NCBI GenBank assembly: GCA_964388715.1
Contig: CAYMBN010000006.1
Coordinates: 1 to 64,000, forward strand
Origin: an uncultured Methanosarcinales archaeon
GTDB lineage: Archaea > Nanobdellota > Nanobdellia > Woesearchaeales > CAYMBN01
Length of the DNA: 64,000 nt
Direction of reading: 5' to 3'
Position numbers and translations under genes: made by a program. Positions 15,408 to 60,287 of this stretch are shown here, piece after piece. Position 1 is the stretch's first letter. Each line of letters opens with the position of its first letter. The notes under the pieces are model-generated. The model saw nothing but the letters and a program-made list of their open reading frames with translations. It did no database searches and was not told the DNA's origin.

Positions 15408-16274
15408 ATGGGGAAATATTTATTCACAAACTCACTAGGTAGCTTTGTATTTGATGAAAAGCTTAAACTAGTTGATAAAGGAGAAGAGAAAAAGCTTAGT
15501 AAGAAGTATAAGGATGCTATTAAAACAGATGATCCAAAAATTGTAAATGGGATCTTGAGATTATTTAAAGAGCAAGCTAAGAAGTTTTATGAGCCTAATT
15601 TAAAGTTTACAAAGCAGAAAGTAAAGGATTCTGTTAATTCTGATAATTTGGTTGTGCAGACAATTGATAATATTGAAGAAATTGATAAAGCTGCTAATTT
15701 ATTGGTTAAAAGGTTAAGAGAATGGTATGAACTTTATAATCCAGAGTTTTCCAAAGGTATTGCATCACATGATAAATTTGTTGAATTGATTCTTGAAAAG
15801 GTGAGTAAGAAGAAGAATTCAATGGGTGCTGAGTTAAGTAAAGAGGATTTAAAGCCAATAATGTCTTTAGCTAAGAAGATTAATGAGTTGTATAAGTTTA
15901 GAGAAGAACAGAAAAAATATCTTGAAAAGATTATGAAAAATAATTATAAGAATCTTACAGCTGTTGCAGGTGTTTTGATTGGAGCAAAATTGTTAGCGCA
16001 TGCTGGTTCATTGAAAAAATTAGTGTTATTTCCTGCTTCAACAATACAATTGTTAGGAGCTGAAAAGGCATTGTTTAGGCATATTAAAACAAAAGCAAAA
16101 TGTCCTAAATATGGATTAATTGTAAATCATCCTATTGTCTCTCAAGCCAAGAAGAAAGGTAAAGCTGCAAGAGCTGTAGCTGATAAAATTAGTATGGCTG
16201 TTAAAATTGATTATTTTAAAGGGAAGTTTATTGGTGATAAACTAAGGAAAGGTTTGGAGAAAAGGTTTGGATGA
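15408..16274 (+). CDS. nop5: Nop5 (Nop56/58) box C/D sRNP core protein
   Basis: RLREWY...PE, PASTIQLLGAEKALFRH, PKYG, GKAAR. Confidence 0.93.
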   Translation: MGKYLFTNSLGSFVFDEKLKLVDKGEEKKLSKKYKDAIKTDDPKIVNGILRLFKEQAKKFYEPNLKFTKQKVKDSVNSDNLVVQTIDNIEEIDKAANLLVKRLREWYELYNPEFSKGIASHDKFVELILEKVSKKKNSMGAELSKEDLKPIMSLAKKINELYKFREEQKKYLEKIMKNNYKNLTAVAGVLIGAKLLAHAGSLKKLVLFPASTIQLLGAEKALFRHIKTKAKCPKYGLIVNHPIVSQAKKKGKAARAVADKISMAVKIDYFKGKFIGDKLRKGLEKRFG

Positions 16275-17758
16275 AAACTGAACAAATCATCAAAAAGTTT
16301 GCTCTTGATAAGACAACTTGGACATTTAAAGGATTTCATGGTCTTCCATTTACATTTTATTATATTGGTTATGGGTCATTGAAGTGGTGTAAAAAGTTTT
16401 ATGGTGATCAATGTAAAAAGTCTATGTTCTTTGCAAGTAAAGATTATATAAGATGGTATTGGCCTGATGAAGATATGAGACGATTGAGAAAGTTACTGAT
16501 TAAAAATGTAAATAAAGATGATAATTATTTAAAAAAGATGAGAACAGATTGGGCAAAAAAGCTCAGAGAATTTAATAAAGTTTTAGAAAAGATAAGTAAA
16601 ACAGACTTAAGTAAACTTAATGATAAAGAATTGCTAGAGTTATATGATGAGTTTCTTGTTAAATATATGGAAGAGTTTGGCATTGTTATGACTGTTCAAG
16701 ATGCTTTTTCAATGTATTCTTCTGAGTTTTTAGAGCCTGCCTTTGTAGAAGTTTTGGAAAAACAAGATAAATTAGACAAATTTACTTATTATTATACTAA
16801 ATTACTTTCACCTGTTGAAGATTCATTTATTTCAATTGAAAAGAAGTCAAGGCTAAATATTTTGAAGGAAGTTGAGAAGAATGGTTTTGACTCAGATAAA
16901 GTAAAAAATATACTTAAAGAACATCAAAAAAAGTTTTTTTGGGTTAGAAATAACTATGCAAAACAGCCTGTTTTGGATGTTAAGTTTTTTGTGGATGAAA
17001 TAAAGAATATGATTAAAGAAGGTGTTAAGGCTGAGAAAGAATTGAAAAAGATGGATGATGAAATTAAAGAGATTGTTGAGGAAAAAAAGAAGATAATAAA
17101 GGAGCTTAAGTTAAGTAAAGAGTTTGTTAATTTGATTAAAATAACTGAAAATTTTAGTTATATTCAAGATGAAAGGAAAAAGTATGTTCTTATTGCAAAC
17201 CATTATCAAAGATTGTTTATGAAAGAGATTTCCAAAAGAAAGAAATTGCCTATTAAGATGGTTGAATATCTTGTTTATCCTGAAATAAAGCAAAGAATGT
17301 TTGACAAACAAAAGTTGAAGAAAAGGTATGATTCTTGTGTATGTATACAGGATGATTCTGGTTTTTATGTTTATGAAGGAGAAGAAGTTGATAAATTACA
17401 TGATAAATTGTTTGGTTCTGATAAAGATAAGAATATTACTGAATTAAAAGGTTTATGTGCTTCAAAAGGTAAAGCAAGAGGTACTGTTAAGATTGTCCAG
17501 AAAACACATGATTTAGTTAATTTCAAAGAAGGAGATATTTTGCTTTCTTCCATGACAAGGCCTGAGATGGTTGTTGCTATGAAAAAAGCAGCTGCAATTG
17601 TAACTGATGAAGGTGGAATCACTTCACATGCTGCGATTGTTTCACGAGAGTTGGGTAAACCATGCATAATTGGTACAAAGAAAGCAACAAGTGTGTTTAA
17701 GGATGGTGATATTGTTGAAGTTGATGCTGATAAAGGAGTTGTAAAGAAAATAAAATGA
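16271..17758 (+). CDS. helical domain + C-terminal PEP-utilising mobile (phospho-His swivel) domain protein
   Basis: TDEGGITSHAAIVSRELGKPCIIGT...VEVDADKG; no ATP-grasp or TIM-barrel domain. Confidence 0.88.
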   Translation: MKTEQIIKKFALDKTTWTFKGFHGLPFTFYYIGYGSLKWCKKFYGDQCKKSMFFASKDYIRWYWPDEDMRRLRKLLIKNVNKDDNYLKKMRTDWAKKLREFNKVLEKISKTDLSKLNDKELLELYDEFLVKYMEEFGIVMTVQDAFSMYSSEFLEPAFVEVLEKQDKLDKFTYYYTKLLSPVEDSFISIEKKSRLNILKEVEKNGFDSDKVKNILKEHQKKFFWVRNNYAKQPVLDVKFFVDEIKNMIKEGVKAEKELKKMDDEIKEIVEEKKKIIKELKLSKEFVNLIKITENFSYIQDERKKYVLIANHYQRLFMKEISKRKKLPIKMVEYLVYPEIKQRMFDKQKLKKRYDSCVCIQDDSGFYVYEGEEVDKLHDKLFGSDKDKNITELKGLCASKGKARGTVKIVQKTHDLVNFKEGDILLSSMTRPEMVVAMKKAAAIVTDEGGITSHAAIVSRELGKPCIIGTKKATSVFKDGDIVEVDADKGVVKKIK

Positions 17759-19038
17759 AAGCTGAAGAAGTTAAGGAAAAAATTAGAGAATTAACATGGG
17801 AAAAATGGCTTCAGAGACACTTTGATCCGTTAGTAACTTCATTTTTTACAGAAGGATTTTATGAAAAATCATTTGAAAAAATAGGAATTCCTAATATGAA
17901 AGGTAAAGCGTCATTATTTCAGGAAAGTGTTTGGTATGAAAGTAAAGAAGTATGGGCTCATGCTGTTGAACTGTTAGAAGTTTATTTAAAGAACCATACA
18001 ATGTTGGATGTATCAAATTTACTTGAAAAATTTTATGAACAAAAAAAGAAACATATTCAATATCTTGTTAAACAAAACGGAAATCCTATTGAGAATTTAA
18101 AGGAGATTTATGAAATTTTAAAATCATGTACAACATTCATATGGGTAGCACATGCATTAGAACAAGTTTTCATGAGAAGGCTAAAACAGGAAGTTCCAAA
18201 ATATGTTAAGAAAGATGTTGATAAATTTATAGGAGATGCAAGTTTTCCAAAGAAAAAGAATGTAAACATGTTAATGGAAGAAGCAATGCGAAAAGGTGAA
18301 GATCCAGAAAAGATTGTTAAAGATTATGGGTGGGTAAAAGTTCGTTGCACTTTTGAAGAACCTTTTAGTGTTGATGATATTAAAAAGTTAATAAAGGAAT
18401 TAAAGCCAACTAAAACAGTAAAAAAAGTAGATATACCTAAAGAACTTCAACCTTTATTTAATGATGTACAAGAGCTAGTATATTTTCGTACTGCAAGAAC
18501 AGATATTTTTTATGAACTTTTGTTTTTATCACGACCGATCTTTAAAAGAGTAGCTGAATTTTACAAAATACCATTTTCTGAATTTCCTTATTACACTGTT
18601 CAAAGTTTAATTAATGGAAAACCTAAAAAGTTTGGGAAAAAATATTCGTTTGCACAATATGAAGATAATCATTATTTTGGGGAAGAACCTATTTTGGAGG
18701 ATGAAGTAGTTAAAGAAGTTGATTATGTAAAAGGAACTGTTGCATATAAAGGAATAATAAAAGGTATTGTAAAAATTGTTAGAATAGAAACAGAATTAGA
18801 TAAAGTAAAACAAGGAGATATCTTAGTGACACAAATGACTTTCCCTTCTTTTATCACTGCTATGCATAAGGCATCTGCATTTGTGACAGATGAAGGTGGA
18901 ATTACGTGTCACGCTGCAATTGTTTCACGGGAAATGCATAAACCATGCATAATTGGTACAAAAATTGGTACAAAGGTTTTTAAAGATGGGGATTTGGTTG
19001 AAGTTGATGCTGATAAAGGTATTGTGAGGAAATTATGA
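17755..19038 (+). CDS. helical domain + C-terminal PEP-utilising mobile (phospho-His swivel) domain protein
   Basis: TDEGGITCHAAIVSREMHKPCIIGT...VEVDADKG. Confidence 0.88.
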   Translation: MKAEEVKEKIRELTWEKWLQRHFDPLVTSFFTEGFYEKSFEKIGIPNMKGKASLFQESVWYESKEVWAHAVELLEVYLKNHTMLDVSNLLEKFYEQKKKHIQYLVKQNGNPIENLKEIYEILKSCTTFIWVAHALEQVFMRRLKQEVPKYVKKDVDKFIGDASFPKKKNVNMLMEEAMRKGEDPEKIVKDYGWVKVRCTFEEPFSVDDIKKLIKELKPTKTVKKVDIPKELQPLFNDVQELVYFRTARTDIFYELLFLSRPIFKRVAEFYKIPFSEFPYYTVQSLINGKPKKFGKKYSFAQYEDNHYFGEEPILEDEVVKEVDYVKGTVAYKGIIKGIVKIVRIETELDKVKQGDILVTQMTFPSFITAMHKASAFVTDEGGITCHAAIVSREMHKPCIIGTKIGTKVFKDGDLVEVDADKGIVRKL

Positions 19039-19694
19039 AACAAACAAAATTTCCAGGTATATTTGAAAAGAAAGGAAAACTTTACACTAGAAGTCTAATT
19101 AAGGGTAAGAAGGAATTTAGAGAAAAAATTGTTAGAGAAGGTAAGATTGAATATAAAGAATGGGATCCGAGGAGAAGTAAACTTGCTGCTGCTATTCTAA
19201 AAGGACTTAATCAAATAGGTATTAAAGAAGGACATGTTGTGCTTTATTTAGGTGCTTCACATGGTTATACACCTTCATATATTTCTGATATTATTGGTAA
19301 AGGAGGTTTTATGTTTGCACTTGATTTTGCACCAAGAGTTGTGCGAGATTTAGTATATGTTTGTGAGCAGAGAAAAAATATGACTCCTTTGTTATCAGAT
19401 GCAAATCAACCAATGAGTTATGCTGATAAAGTAACCCAGGTTGATGTGATCTATCAAGATATTGCGCAAAGAAATCAAGCAGGAATATTTTTGGATAATA
19501 TTGATTATTTTTTGAAACCAGAAGGATTTGGTATTCTTGCTGTTAAATCAAGAAGTATTGATATTGCTAAAAAGCCTTTTCAGGTTTATCAAGATGTTAA
19601 AAAAGAATTAGAGAAAAAGGTTACAATAGTTGATTTTAGAAAGCTTGATCCATTTGAAAAGGATCATTGTTTGTTTGTTGTGAAGAAGAAATAA
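19035..19694 (+). CDS. flpA: fibrillarin rRNA/tRNA 2'-O-methyltransferase
   Basis: WDPRRSKLAAAI, VLYLGA, YQDIAQ.NQ, KSRSID, LDPFEKDH. Confidence 0.95.
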   Translation: MKQTKFPGIFEKKGKLYTRSLIKGKKEFREKIVREGKIEYKEWDPRRSKLAAAILKGLNQIGIKEGHVVLYLGASHGYTPSYISDIIGKGGFMFALDFAPRVVRDLVYVCEQRKNMTPLLSDANQPMSYADKVTQVDVIYQDIAQRNQAGIFLDNIDYFLKPEGFGILAVKSRSIDIAKKPFQVYQDVKKELEKKVTIVDFRKLDPFEKDHCLFVVKKK

Positions 19695-19707
19695 AAAAAT
19701 TTATATA
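19694..19707 (+). promoter_or_regulatory. BRE/TATA promoter of the Cys leader-tRNA-Cys unit
   Basis: A-run then TTTATATA (19700-19707), about 24 nt before the ATG at 19731. Confidence 0.7.
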
Positions 19708-19730
19708 TTAGCATAAATTTCTAATTAGTT

Positions 19731-19760
19731 ATGAAACAAACAATAGATTGTTGTTGTTGA
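19731..19760 (+). CDS. putative cysteine-sensing leader peptide MKQTIDCCC
   Basis: ATG AAA CAA ACA ATA GAT TGT TGT TGT TGA, at leaderless spacing from the TATA and directly upstream of tRNA-Cys/cysK/cysS. Confidence 0.7.
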   Translation: MKQTIDCCC

Positions 19761-19789
19761 ATTCTTTCATTGTTTTAGTTTTAACTCTA

Positions 19790-19914
19790 GGGAGTGTTGC
19801 CAAGCGGCTAAATTTTCAAGGCTAGGTTTTCAAGGCTAGGGCGGTCGGCTGCAACCCGACTAATCAAGGGTTCGAGACGTTTATTCTAAAGACGCGAAAT
19901 TCCCTTCACTCCCT
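19790..19914 (+). tRNA. tRNA-Cys(GCA) with two non-canonical introns (19812-19839 in the D arm, 19877-19900 in the T loop)
   Basis: Acceptor GGGAGTG/CACTCCC + U73; anticodon arm GTCGG-CTGCAAC-CCGAC; T stem AAGGG/CCCTT; removing both BHB-bounded inserts restores a canonical cloverleaf. Confidence 0.92.
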
Positions 19915-19982
19915 TCTTAACAATGAAAGGTCAAAAAAGCAAAACTTAATAAATAATCTAAACTAAAATAGAGGTAATCAAA

Positions 19983-20903
19983 ATGCAAAAAGCGAGATTA
20001 TTACAATTGGTTGGAGGAACTCCTGTAGTTAAATTAACTAGAGTTAATAATACAAAAGCCAAAATATTTGCAAAACTTGATTCCATGAATCCAAGTGGTA
20101 GTATAAAAGATGTTATGGCATGGTACATGATGCAAAGGGCAGAAGAAAAAGGTCTTCTAAAACCTGGCCAGAGAATAATTGAAGTTACAACAGGAAATAC
20201 TGGAATAGCTTTCGCAATGTTATCTGCAATAATGGGATATAAATTTACAGCAGTTATGCCAGAACATATGTCAAAAGAAAGAATGCAAATGATGCGAGCT
20301 TTTGGTGCAGAATTGGTTTTAACATCTGAAAAAGAGGATGTTGCAGGTGCTATTAAAAAATATAATGAATTAGTTAAGAAAAATCCAAATGCATGGTTCC
20401 CAAGACAATTCCAAAACAAAGATAATGTAAGAGCACATATGGAAATAACAGGTAAAGAAATCCTTAATCAGATTTATGATAAGATTGACGCTTTTGTTGC
20501 AGGAGCAGGTACAGGTGGAACAATAATGGGTACTTCAAAAATATTAAGAAAAGCCTATCCAAATATAAAGATTGTTGCTGTTGAACCTGCTGAATCAGCT
20601 GTGTTGTCAGGGAAAGAGCCTGGACCGCATGGAATCCAAGGAATTGGTGAAGGTTTTATACCTGATCTTTTAGATCCAAAACAACTTGATGAAGTTATTG
20701 TAATCAAAACTGAAGATGCAAAGAAAATGGCTGCGCGTTTAGCAAAAGAAGAAGGGATATTATGTGGAATTAGTTCAGGTGCAAATGTGTTAGCATCATT
20801 ACAAATTGCAAAAAAACTTGGAAAAGATAAGGTTGTTGTTACTGTTATACCTGATAGAGGGGAAAGATATTTAAGTATGGATTTTTTAGGTGGTAAACAA
20901 TGA
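19983..20903 (+). CDS. cysK: cysteine synthase (O-acetylserine sulfhydrylase family, PLP)
   Basis: NPSGSIKD, TTGNTGIA, GAGTGGT, HGIQGIG.GF.P, GISSGAN, PDRGERYLS. Confidence 0.92.
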   Translation: MQKARLLQLVGGTPVVKLTRVNNTKAKIFAKLDSMNPSGSIKDVMAWYMMQRAEEKGLLKPGQRIIEVTTGNTGIAFAMLSAIMGYKFTAVMPEHMSKERMQMMRAFGAELVLTSEKEDVAGAIKKYNELVKKNPNAWFPRQFQNKDNVRAHMEITGKEILNQIYDKIDAFVAGAGTGGTIMGTSKILRKAYPNIKIVAVEPAESAVLSGKEPGPHGIQGIGEGFIPDLLDPKQLDEVIVIKTEDAKKMAARLAKEEGILCGISSGANVLASLQIAKKLGKDKVVVTVIPDRGERYLSMDFLGGKQ

Positions 20904-22303
20904 CACTAAAATTATACAATACTTTTACTAGAAAAAAGCAAGAGTTTAAACCGATTAAAAAAGGAGTTGTTCATATGTATACCTGTGGTCCTACTGTCTA
21001 TGATTATGCACATATTGGAAATTTTAGAGCTTATGTTAATTATGATATCCTAAGAAGATATCTTAAATTTAAAGGGTTTAAAGTAAAACAGGTCATGAAT
21101 ATCACAGATATAGATGATAAAACAATAAAAAAATCACAAGAAGAAGGAAAATCAATAAAAAAATTTACAGAATTCTATGAAAAAGAATTTTTAAAAGATC
21201 TAAAAGCACTTAATATAGAAATGCCTGAAATTATGCCACATGCTTCAGATCACATTAAGGAAATGGTTGAATTAATTCAAAAATTAAGCAGAAAAGGTTA
21301 CACATACGAAGCAAATGGTTCAATTTATTTTAAAATTTCAAAATTTAAAGATTATGGAAAACTAGCAAAGCTTGATATGGAAAGTCTCAAAGAAAATGCA
21401 GATGGTAGACTTGCTGATGCTGATGAATATGAAAAAGAAGATGCACGTGATTTTGTATTATGGAAAGGATATAACAAATCAGATGGAGGTGTTTTTTGGA
21501 ATCCAATAATTGGAAAAGGTAGACCTGGTTGGCATATTGAATGTTCTGTAATGTCAATGAAATATCTGGGGAAAACATTTGATATTCATACTGGTGGTAT
21601 TGATTTAATATTTCCACATCATACAAATGAGATTGCGCAATCAGAAAGTGCCACTGATGAGAAGTTTGTTAATTATTGGATACACAATGAACATTTACTT
21701 GTTAACAACAAAAAAATGAGTAAATCACTGGAAAATTATTTCACTTTAAGAGATTTGTTAAAGAAAGGGTATAAACCAATTGCTATTCGTTATCTTTTAC
21801 TTTCAGCGCATTATAGGCAAAAACTTAATTTTACATTAAAAGGTATTGAAGCAGCTGAAAAAACAGTACAAAAGTTCTATGATTTTATTGATAAGTTAAA
21901 AGAATATAAGGATGGAACAGATAATTCAAAAATTAACAACATTCTAGAAAAAACAAAATCATCTTTTGAACAAGCAATGGATGATGACTTAAACACATCA
22001 AAAGCACTAGGAATAATCTTTGACATGATGAGTGAGATTAATAAATTATTGATGAAAAAAGATATGAATAAGAAAAATGCAGAAAAAGTATTGAAGGTTA
22101 TGAAAGAGTTTGATCTTGTTCTTGGTGTTATGGAACATAAGGAAGAGAAGACTCCTAAAAAAGTTATTGATCTTATTGAGAAAAGGGAGGAAGCTCGTGA
22201 AAAAAAGGATTTTAAGATTGCTGATAAGATTCGTGAAGAGATAGGTAAGTTGGGTTATATTATTGAGGATACTAAAGAAGGAGTAAAGTGTAAGAAAAAA
22301 TGA
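20900..22303 (+). CDS. cysS: cysteinyl-tRNA synthetase
   Basis: CGPTVYD..HIGN, GRPGWHIEC, DLIFPHH.NE, KMSKS. Confidence 0.97.
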   Translation: MTLKLYNTFTRKKQEFKPIKKGVVHMYTCGPTVYDYAHIGNFRAYVNYDILRRYLKFKGFKVKQVMNITDIDDKTIKKSQEEGKSIKKFTEFYEKEFLKDLKALNIEMPEIMPHASDHIKEMVELIQKLSRKGYTYEANGSIYFKISKFKDYGKLAKLDMESLKENADGRLADADEYEKEDARDFVLWKGYNKSDGGVFWNPIIGKGRPGWHIECSVMSMKYLGKTFDIHTGGIDLIFPHHTNEIAQSESATDEKFVNYWIHNEHLLVNNKKMSKSLENYFTLRDLLKKGYKPIAIRYLLLSAHYRQKLNFTLKGIEAAEKTVQKFYDFIDKLKEYKDGTDNSKINNILEKTKSSFEQAMDDDLNTSKALGIIFDMMSEINKLLMKKDMNKKNAEKVLKVMKEFDLVLGVMEHKEEKTPKKVIDLIEKREEAREKKDFKIADKIREEIGKLGYIIEDTKEGVKCKKK

Positions 22304-22734
22304 TATTTATTGGAAGTGATCATGCTGGGTTTGAGGAAAAGGAAAGAATAAAAAAGTTTCTTATTGATAATGGTTATGAAGTAGAGGATTGTGGGCCATT
22401 AGAATATGATAAAGAAGATGATTATCCTGACTTTGCATTAAAAGTTGCTGAGAAAGTTAGTGAGAGTGGTGAGAAAGGTATTTTGGTTTGTGGAACAGGA
22501 CAAGGTGTTTGTATTGCTGCAAATAAAGTTCCTGAAATAGTTGCAGCTTTGTGTTGGGATAAAGAGTCTGCGGTACATGCAAAGCAGCATCTTAATGCTA
22601 ATATTATTACTTTTTCTGCTAAGATTGGTTGTGGAGAGGAGATTGTTAAAGCTTGGTTAGATGAGAAGTTTAAAGAGCATGAAGAAAGGCATACAAGAAG
22701 ATTGAGTAAGATTAAAGAGATTGAGAAAAGATAA
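22300..22734 (+). CDS. rpiB: ribose-5-phosphate isomerase B family
   Basis: GSDHAG, DYPD, CGTGQG..IAANK, RH.RR. Confidence 0.93.
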   Translation: MIFIGSDHAGFEEKERIKKFLIDNGYEVEDCGPLEYDKEDDYPDFALKVAEKVSESGEKGILVCGTGQGVCIAANKVPEIVAALCWDKESAVHAKQHLNANIITFSAKIGCGEEIVKAWLDEKFKEHEERHTRRLSKIKEIEKR

Positions 22735-47062: not shown

Positions 47063-47166
47063 GGGAACATAGCTCAGACTGGGAGAGCACTACGCTGAAG
47101 ACGTAGGTGTCCTGGGAAGTTAATTGGAATACAATTAACTCAGGAATTCAAATCCCAGTGTTCCCA
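47063..47166 (+). tRNA. tRNA-Phe(GAA) with a 30-nt intron at position 53/54 (47117-47146)
   Basis: GGGAACA/TGTTCCC acceptor, GCTC/GAGC D stem, CTACG-CTGAAGA-CGTAG, CTGGG/CCCAG T stem; TATA at 47030-47037. Confidence 0.95.
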
Positions 47167-59489: not shown

Positions 59490-59936
59490 TTATACCTCAT
59501 CTAGGACAACCAGTGTTTGTGTTCTATCAACACCATCTATATTACGGAGGGTCCTTGTAATAAAATTATTTAATTCTGATATGTTTGTTGTTCTTAGTTT
59601 AATAATGATATCTGTTTCACCTGTTACCATATCAACTGATTCAACATAAGAATTTTTCTTTATTTTAAATGCAATATCTTTTTGTTCTAGCTTTTTACCT
59701 GATTTTAAGGTATAATCAACTGTTACAAAAATGTATGCACAGATTGTTTTACCAAGTTTTTCATGATCAATATTAATTGTAAAGTTTTTTATGATACCTT
59801 GCTGAGTTAATCGTTTAATTCTGTTGTGTACTGTTGTAATTGGAAGGGAAACTTTTTTAGAAATTTGACTAGTAGTAAGTTTTGCGTTATTTTTTAATAC
59901 GTCTAAAATTCTTAAATCTTTTCCATCTATTTTCAT
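59490..59936 (-). CDS. Lrp/AsnC-family transcriptional regulator
   Basis: D..D..IL..L, TTVHNRIKRL..QGII, VTGETD, RAM domain. Confidence 0.93.
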   Translation of the reverse strand: MKIDGKDLRILDVLKNNAKLTTSQISKKVSLPITTVHNRIKRLTQQGIIKNFTINIDHEKLGKTICAYIFVTVDYTLKSGKKLEQKDIAFKIKKNSYVESVDMVTGETDIIIKLRTTNISELNNFITRTLRNIDGVDRTQTLVVLDEV

Positions 59937-60043: not shown

Positions 60044-60145
60044 ATGAAAAAATCAAAAAGAAAATTAAAACCATTGTTCAGGCTAAAGAGAAAAGCTTGC
60101 CTGAAAGCACTTTTTCTAGATCAAAATCTTTTGAATAATAATTGA
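60044..60145 (+). CDS. putative asparagine-sensing leader peptide (33 aa, ends NLLNNN)
   Basis: MKKSKRKLKPLFRLKRKACLKALFLDQNLLNNN-TGA; TTTAAATA at 60013-60020 about 24 nt upstream; precedes asnS. Confidence 0.55.
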   Translation: MKKSKRKLKPLFRLKRKACLKALFLDQNLLNNN

Positions 60146-60242
60146 GATGTCTGTTTTTATCAGATCAATGTATTTTTTCAATAAAGTTTTAGAACCATCA
60201 AGCAGAGCTTGAGGTTTCTAAACGGTTTCGACCCTGTCGAAA
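60141..60242 (+). promoter_or_regulatory. structured leader between the uORF and asnS (hairpin + T6 tract, two further hairpins)
   Basis: ATTGA..TCTG/CAGA-TCAAT then T6 (60173-60178); TTTAGAA..TCAAGC/GCTTGA..TTCTAAA (60188-60222); TTTCGAC/GTCGAAA (60226-60242). Confidence 0.55.
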
Positions 60243-60287
60243 ACTTTATATAATATAAAACTAAATAAAATCATAATTGGTGAAAAA

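Follow-up and report, generated by a model that had tools for sequence, protein, structure and literature searches.

The locus lies in the window, the whole 64,000-nucleotide stretch of DNA that was analyzed, which comes from a 1.3-Mb archaeal genome of 31% GC that is 96% complete. A fibrillarin gene ends at 19694, upstream of the features of interest, and two tandem genes for PEP-utilising swivel-domain proteins sit between nop56 and the fibrillarin gene (16271–19038). From the promoter onward, the features at this locus are all on the forward strand. A short leader open reading frame (ORF) is followed by a tRNA-Cys gene, by cysK (19983–20903), encoding cysteine synthase A (TIGR01139, 393 bits against a cutoff of 351), and by cysS (20900–22303), encoding cysteinyl-tRNA synthetase (TIGR00435, 504 bits against a cutoff of 340). 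A gene for an rpiB-type sugar-phosphate isomerase (22300–22734), identified by family search, overlaps the cysS stop codon and is probably cotranscribed with cysS. Ahead of cysK, the sequence GAGGT (19971–19975) forms what we take to be a Shine–Dalgarno-like motif, as expected of an internal gene. The queries used turned up neither cysE nor a SerK-like gene in the host genome, leaving cysK without a detectable partner to supply activated serine.

The tRNA-Cys gene (19790–19914) has the anticodon GCA at 19851–19853 and carries two inserts, probably introns with approximate junctions, in the D loop (about 19812–19839) and the T loop (about 19876–19900). Because of these inserts, ARAGORN and Rfam miss the intact gene; once both are taken out in silico, 882 of 1300 junction variants are recognized by ARAGORN as tRNA-Cys and none as a different tRNA. 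The D-loop insert, as assembled, contains a 14-nt tandem duplication (19813–19840). The gene has no promoter of its own. Most tRNAs that ARAGORN recognizes in the host genome have a TATA-like site 30–36 nt upstream, and the TATA box of the tRNA-Phe gene at 47063 ends 25 nt ahead of it, a comparison already drawn in the sequence-only reading of this DNA. That reading also saw no TATA box nearer to tRNA-Cys than the one ahead of the leader, and the promoter matrix agrees, with no site between 19701 and 19944. A second tRNA-Cys gene in the host genome (contig C2, 114803–114967, minus strand) has its own TATA box and three inserts, in the D, anticodon, and T loops; ARAGORN misses this copy as well. 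Second copies were found in 3 of 10 other genomes tested (two with their own TATA box, one at a contig end) and not in the other 7, using a pattern that misses intron-bearing copies.

The promoter (19692–19707; matrix score 13.5) consists of an A-rich BRE-like stretch and the TATA box TTTATATA at 19700–19707. After a gap of 23 nt comes the ATG (19731) of a nine-codon ORF (19731–19760) encoding MKQTIDCCC, with three consecutive TGT codons (19749–19757), a TGA stop codon (19758–19760), and a T-rich tract thereafter, all of it as first read from the sequence. The ATG sits 31 nt past the first base of the TATA box, a distance typical of leaderless genes in the host. Such genes are common: the matrix, itself derived from the promoters of the Cys leaders, gives 253 matches at 29–34 nt among 1011 genes, with a peak at 30 nt. 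The same TATA element is found 29–34 nt upstream of the ATG in 46 tabulated Cys leaders, 35 of them at 30–31 nt, within a window of 29–37 nt preset by the search pattern. Judging from this spacing, the transcript is predicted to begin at the leader AUG. The caution raised at the outset that cysK may have a TATA-like element of its own was warranted, as a weaker site (19946–19953; score 6.1 versus 13.5) lies 37 nt upstream of the cysK ATG. Its spacing falls outside the 29–34 nt leaderless peak, and it could drive cysK separately.

A Cys run ahead of a Cys operon had initially been judged unlikely to arise by chance. In dinucleotide shuffles of 19708–19789, an ATG ORF of any kind with three Cys codons appears in 50 of 100,000 cases and a leaderless-spaced ORF ending in Cys-Cys-Cys-stop in 0 of 100,000. 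Three-Cys short ORFs are frequent genome-wide in any frame (63 entries), and position and conservation therefore carry the case, not the run alone.

Conservation and range of the Cys leaders

A pattern of TATA box, ATG, three Cys codons, and TRR stop, blind to frame and neighboring genes, was searched in 401 genomes of the host's order and matched at 140 places in 111 of them. Among the 134 matches examined, a set that leaves aside five in genomes marked unpublished and one more, 41 of 50 in frame and 0 of 84 out of frame stand ahead of tRNA-Cys, cysE, cysK, or cysS (Fisher p = 5e-26, a value overstated by kinship among the genomes). The script had split these matches into 49 in frame and 85 out, and one of the 85 is in frame with a later stop. 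The nine other in-frame matches either have less than 500 nt of contig left (five) or lie inside long ORFs (four). By hand count, the 41 Cys-gene leader loci represent 40 genomes and 29 families, and the ATG, frame, run, and stop are kept before the Cys genes. Synonymous change between TGT and TGC, which the sequence-only reading had named beforehand as decisive, is also present: the 46 tabulated leaders hold 127 TGT and 38 TGC codons, and they use all three stop codons (TAG in 22, TGA in 15, and TAA in 9).

These comparisons bear on whether there is a sensor at all. The TGT repeats might instead be a DNA operator, the ORF might encode a functional Cys-rich micropeptide, or the arrangement might be due to chance; an Lrp-family regulator is present in the window, and the genome-wide frequency of three-Cys ORFs lends something to the last of these. 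The strict frame dependence, the synonymous change, and the three different stop codons argue against all such readings, as do the free N-terminal sequence and variable length (7–15 codons) of the tabulated leaders and the occurrence of other amino acids only ahead of their own genes. A locus without a sensor is considered very improbable. What selection maintains in the tabulated leaders appears to be that Cys codons are translated immediately ahead of a stop; neither a DNA repeat nor a peptide seems to be its target.

The leaders are not general to cysS. Among 30 cysS loci taken from different families, a leaderless Cys-run ORF lies within 1.45 kb upstream in 6, the host included, and the lack of one at most cysS genes within that distance counts against an attenuator model. 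Unrelated genes stand between some Cys leaders and cysS (loci L131, L109, and L026), namely a 258-aa ORF and a gene for a BshB1-like deacetylase. At L026, another leaderless ORF, with two Cys codons at its end, lies about 200 nt farther upstream.

Searches outside the order were samples, with a pattern that assumes TTTAWA promoters and three Cys codons. A Cys leader of the same kind occurs in a record titled Candidatus Woesearchaeota (L322). Three records with other titles (two Methanosarcinales and one 2.4-kb contig from a bacterial bin) carry leaders that closely resemble those of the order, and their titles are treated as unreliable. In an all-species pattern scan, 76 of 80 loci among the matches listed lack the combination of a leader and a Cys gene. 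Neither 63 genomes from other orders of the same class (4 matches) nor 131 genomes from the phylum, around a record with a Micrarchaeia title (8 matches, none of them in frame), gave a Cys leader ahead of a Cys gene. A match in genome G510 was rejected as a Cys leader because it overlaps genes on the opposite strand. A further 131 genomes, around a record with a Thermoplasmatales title, include one (G727, from another phylum) that has an eight-codon Cys leader 65 nt upstream of cysK on a 203-kb contig (L655:9573–10560), where it occurs twice, within an identical 16.6-kb duplicate. The G727 cysK is 71–74% identical to leader-bearing cysK genes of the order, which suggests that the gene and leader were transferred together.

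The element behind the stop codon and a proposed mechanism

The stretch behind the leader stop codon (19761–19782) is conserved and unstructured. In the host, it comprises a pyrimidine run (19762–19767), a CA dinucleotide (19768–19769), and two U4 tracts (19773–19776 and 19779–19782); the general order of the element is pyrimidines, CA, UUG, and a U-rich segment. Of 44 leaders, 36 carry the motif TTYT(0-4)CAT, compared with 9 of the 412 free gene ends in the host genome, a rarity that sets it apart from the terminator usual there. The post-stop alignment has the C in all 44 rows and the A in 40, counts that lean high from the free placement of gaps. The first CA falls 6–11 nt past the stop codon in 41 of 44 leaders, and the post-stop pyrimidine fraction is 0.67 in leaders versus 0.51.

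No stable fold accompanies this linear element. The mean z-score of the leaders relative to shuffles is +0.33, with 1 of 44 below −2 (the host leader scores −0.48), and no terminator or antiterminator hairpins were found in the leaders, the sole terminator-like match being inside the tRNA. An Rfam scan of the window at gathering thresholds returned only tRNA-Phe, with no T-box or riboswitch match to the 59-nt leader. Two other roles for the post-stop CAT were considered and rejected. As an anti-start that pairs with the leader AUG, it shows no covariation (22 of 40 cases are compatible, all of the common A/T kind), and as the start of an antisense ORF, its distance from the stop codon varies over all frames.

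A sensor of the same kind could act on translation, as in mycobacteria, with the Cys tract or the post-stop element pairing with the next Shine–Dalgarno sequence or start codon unless a ribosome is there. The closest precedent works in this way (bioRxiv 10.1101/834739), Shine–Dalgarno-like motifs are found at 23 of 37 first downstream genes, and in the window, 19764–19774 is complementary to 19921–19931 behind the tRNA. Pairing with the downstream Shine–Dalgarno region is not locus specific, however (−6.9 kcal/mol with a leader's own downstream start versus −7.0 kcal/mol with those of other loci), and the absence of a fold and the tRNA gene that often intervenes also tell against this route, which is considered decidedly improbable.

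The features of the element are reminiscent of the substrates of aCPSF1 (FttA), for which it is a candidate site by motif and alignment. The host genome has an aCPSF1 gene (contig C1, 255008–256885; TIGR03675, 875 bits). The nuclease cuts RNA and favors CA that is single-stranded (PMC3553952), and its binding needs two U4 tracts (PMC8716108). It contacts positions −1 to −36 of the RNA, with the U-rich contacts at −30 to −36, and about 36 nt of nascent RNA is needed (PMC11616081). Ribosomes and aCPSF1 have been proposed to be mutually exclusive (PMC8116511).

The same sensor could also work without aCPSF1, either by factor-independent termination at U tracts or through a polymerase pause released by the coupled ribosome. 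Intrinsic termination at oligo-U has been described for archaea (PMC8116511), and the T content at +1 to +25 is 0.50 in leaders, compared with 0.37 for gene ends. A factor-free route is nevertheless quite unlikely, as it leaves the near-invariant C and CA unexplained and 14 of 44 leaders lack a U4 tract.

The proposed attenuator would operate as follows. From the spacing of the promoter, a single transcript would begin at or near the leader AUG and run over the leader, tRNA-Cys, cysK, and cysS. A ribosome would load on the leaderless AUG, and its speed at the conserved Cys codons would report the level of charged tRNA-Cys. When cysteine is plentiful, the ribosome would terminate and leave, and the naked pyrimidine–CA–U tract would be bound and cut by aCPSF1/FttA with help from the U tracts, such that much of the transcription would end before or just inside the tRNA gene. 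When Cys-tRNA is scarce, the ribosome would stall on the last Cys codons with its footprint masking the stop codon and the first part of the tract; aCPSF1 would be unable to load, the polymerase would read through, and tRNA, synthase, and synthetase would be raised together. The archaeal ribosome footprint is 27 nt, with 12 nt upstream of the P site (PMC7261190). With the last Cys codon in the A site, its 3′ edge would thus fall about 6 nt past the stop codon, i.e., in the 5′ part of the element. Control of this kind must be leaky because cysS is essential and single copy here.

The position of the tRNA genes bears on the level at which control is exerted. A tRNA lies 21–130 nt behind the stop codon in 19 of 45 leaders, and none of these has a TATA score of at least 7, the highest being 6.1. 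With a promoterless tRNA so often the first downstream product, control is needed at the level of RNA synthesis or survival, and as a tRNA cannot be controlled at translation initiation, this points to transcription-level control. RNA survival is the basis of another account that keeps the sensor, in which the naked leader is cut after transcription by aCPSF1 or aRNase J, the downstream RNA is decayed 5′ to 3′, and a stalled ribosome protects it. This account draws on the same motif and the same nuclease preference and makes polymerase–ribosome timing unnecessary, and it suits the roughly half of leaders that run straight into mRNA (26 of 45 have no tRNA recognised). Where a tRNA follows, RNase P and RNase Z processing would be expected to excise it, and that excision would uncouple the cysK and cysS mRNA from the leader. 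Control by decay is rated as unlikely.

A ribosome-operated, cysteine-sensing transcription attenuator is the best explanation of the locus and is favored with modest confidence. Its parts differ in strength. That a single transcript starts at the leader AUG and a ribosome reads its Cys codons as a sensor is, from conservation and spacing, highly probable; given the sensor, termination through aCPSF1/FttA is reasonably likely. The second tRNA-Cys gene of the host, with its own TATA box, also speaks for the model. Several weaknesses attach to it. A terminating ribosome would cover slightly more of the tract than a stalled one, such that the model rests on dwell time and also needs a polymerase pause at a hypothetical site. 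Cleavage positions predicted from CA disagree with those predicted from the U tracts, and the motif is scarce at ordinary gene ends. One or more U4 tracts occur in no more than 30 of the 44 leaders, compared with 178 of 412 gene ends of the ordinary kind. The weak site before cysK is a possible internal promoter, and in 7 of 10 other genomes the search, with a pattern that misses intron-bearing copies, gave no second tRNA-Cys.

Leaders for other amino acids

The sequence-only reading had proposed a lineage-wide system from a similar ORF ahead of asnS. This ORF exists (60044–60145): it has 33 codons, with three Asn codons and then TGA, and ends 142 nt upstream of asnS. It is the weaker part of the proposal, with an asnS leader candidate in 2 of 30 loci, the host included, whereas leaders ahead of thrS, valS, hisS, and hisG bear the broader idea out. 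The asnS locus may be regulated differently, given an inverted repeat (60190–60222) between the Asn ORF and asnS, a divergent gene for an Lrp/AsnC-family regulator (59490–59936), and a TATA-like site near 60246.

A genome-wide scan of the host found 29 intergenic leaderless short ORFs, 3 of which have a terminal or near-terminal run that matches the next gene: Cys with cysK, Thr with thrS, and Asn with asnS. The Thr leader is a 32-codon leaderless ORF on contig C8 of the host (G000; L223:4173–4271, minus strand), 81 nt upstream of thrS, with eight Thr codons that end one codon ahead of the stop; similar leaders occur in relatives. Thr runs precede thrS in 4 of 30 loci of relatives, or 3 of 30 under a stricter TATA filter, and there are two further thrS leaders beyond the 30-locus set. 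A Thr-run pattern applied to 251 genomes was not above its reversed control, and of new thrS leaders 30 loci from it gave just these two. A second family of thrS leaders (4 of 30 loci: L230, L231, L233, and L253) has 21–24 codons, with Thr second or third last. A conserved hydrophobic core is seen in this family, which could possibly be an arrest peptide through which one codon suffices to gauge supply.

Val runs stand ahead of valS in 2 of 30 loci and in two hand-picked loci. Ahead of hisS, 5 of 30 loci have leaders in which one or two His codons stand close to the stop, with one more before hisS and one before hisG; these His leaders (L431, L432, L438, L480, L491, L493, and L505) share the residues neighboring the His codons. 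Several of the non-Cys leaders bear the post-stop motif too. Counted by eye, a cognate residue occupies three of the last four positions in 12 leaders and a noncognate residue (Lys or Leu) in 2.

Other cases were seen singly or in pairs. A 12-codon Ile-rich leaderless ORF lies 56 nt before ileS in one genome (L563, G020), a single case without the motif; apart from it, no clear new leader emerged at the 64 loci of other synthetases surveyed in five genomes, which hold mostly leaderless genes. On contig C13 of the host (L224:5624–5689, minus strand), a 21-codon leaderless ORF ends in six Ile codons; it was not counted as a leader because the next gene, of 173 aa, has no NCBIfam match. Two leaderless short ORFs before class I aminotransferase genes (L429 and L430) have a common Ala-containing four-residue core and the motif, a pair that possibly senses Ala. 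In the region L403:1531–1560, a nine-codon leader that ends in Arg and Trp codons and has the motif precedes a gene for an amino-acid racemase. Most of the 150 matches listed, out of 659 to a general motif pattern, are ordinary gene starts, and 20 regions were hand-picked.

The same design appears to be reused for Thr, Val, and His genes. That it amounts to multi-amino-acid attenuation in a DPANN order, with leaderless mini-genes gating a shared, structure-free aCPSF1 cleavage signal for Cys, Thr, Val, and His and perhaps Asn, Ile, and Ala, is a tentative proposal held at a little below even confidence.

Comparison with known systems

Classical bacterial attenuators such as trpL, hisL, thrL, the ilv leaders, and pheM-pheST couple runs of cognate codons to terminator and antiterminator hairpins. 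The leaders described here are like them in having a cognate-codon leader ORF before biosynthetic and synthetase genes (Cys, Thr, Val, and His); they are unlike them in having no such hairpins, a predicted leaderless start, and codons placed directly before the stop. Gauging of amino-acid supply by a ribosome in deciding on transcription has so far been established only in bacteria, and these leaders probably extend it to archaea. Possible precedents exist: a two-codon Met-Trp leader was reportedly proposed for Methanothermobacter trpY by Xie and Reeve in 2005, and a leader has been suggested in the Thermococcus trp operon. The literature searched, a body with few subscription papers, yielded no amino-acid leader attenuator from archaea. 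The available parts of PMC11456600, PMC8116511, PMC13675443, PMC12548453, PMC1854888, and PMC13681488 describe none, and as far as its available text goes, Blombach et al. (2021; PMC8448881) knew of no transcription attenuation or antitermination mechanism in archaea.

The leaders, if they work as proposed, would be the first transcription attenuators of archaea and a natural switch in which the ribosome competes with a CPSF73/Integrator-like nuclease, aCPSF1. The tRNA gene would be controlled by its own charging, an unusual placement, and reduced, host-dependent archaea would need no transcription factor to sense the supply of aminoacyl-tRNA. That a coupled ribosome excludes aCPSF1 is still a hypothesis (PMC11616081, PMC8116511), for which these 60-nt elements would be ready-made minimal reporters in several amino-acid flavors.

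The tnaC-tnaA operon of E. coli uses Rho-dependent attenuation by ribosome occlusion, with peptide-mediated arrest in response to an excess of free tryptophan. The proposed logic is similar in that a stalled ribosome would hide a site behind the leader stop codon, pyrimidine rich and unstructured, where a termination factor loads. It would differ in that the factor is the CPSF73-like nuclease aCPSF1 and not Rho, which to our knowledge archaea lack, and in that cognate codons sense shortage. The N terminus of the Cys-leader peptide is not conserved among the 46 tabulated leaders, which may be set beside the nascent-peptide arrest of the tnaC type. The element may share U tracts, a single-stranded CA, and untranslated RNA with aCPSF1/FttA terminators (PMC3553952, PMC8716108, PMC11616081, PMC8448881). 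Those terminators are at gene ends or have no sequence signal, and gating by a translated leader is not described in the portions of these papers that were available. Promoter-proximal recruitment of aCPSF1 has been reported in Saccharolobus (PMC8448881).

The closest likeness is to the polycysteine leaderless short ORFs of mycobacteria, of the Ms5788A type (Canestrari et al., bioRxiv 10.1101/834739), predicted earlier by Seliverstov et al. (PMC1262725). Both kinds of leader have a short ORF, leaderless in mycobacteria and predicted to be so here, with consecutive Cys codons at its 3′ end and cysteine genes behind it. The mycobacterial Cys tract forms a very stable fold by pairing with the next Shine–Dalgarno sequence, and the authors, in the available text, exclude termination. 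The archaeal leaders differ in that they have a TATA promoter and a conserved linear motif, lack a fold, and often have a tRNA first downstream. The design thus seems to resemble that of the mycobacterial Cys leaders with a different output.
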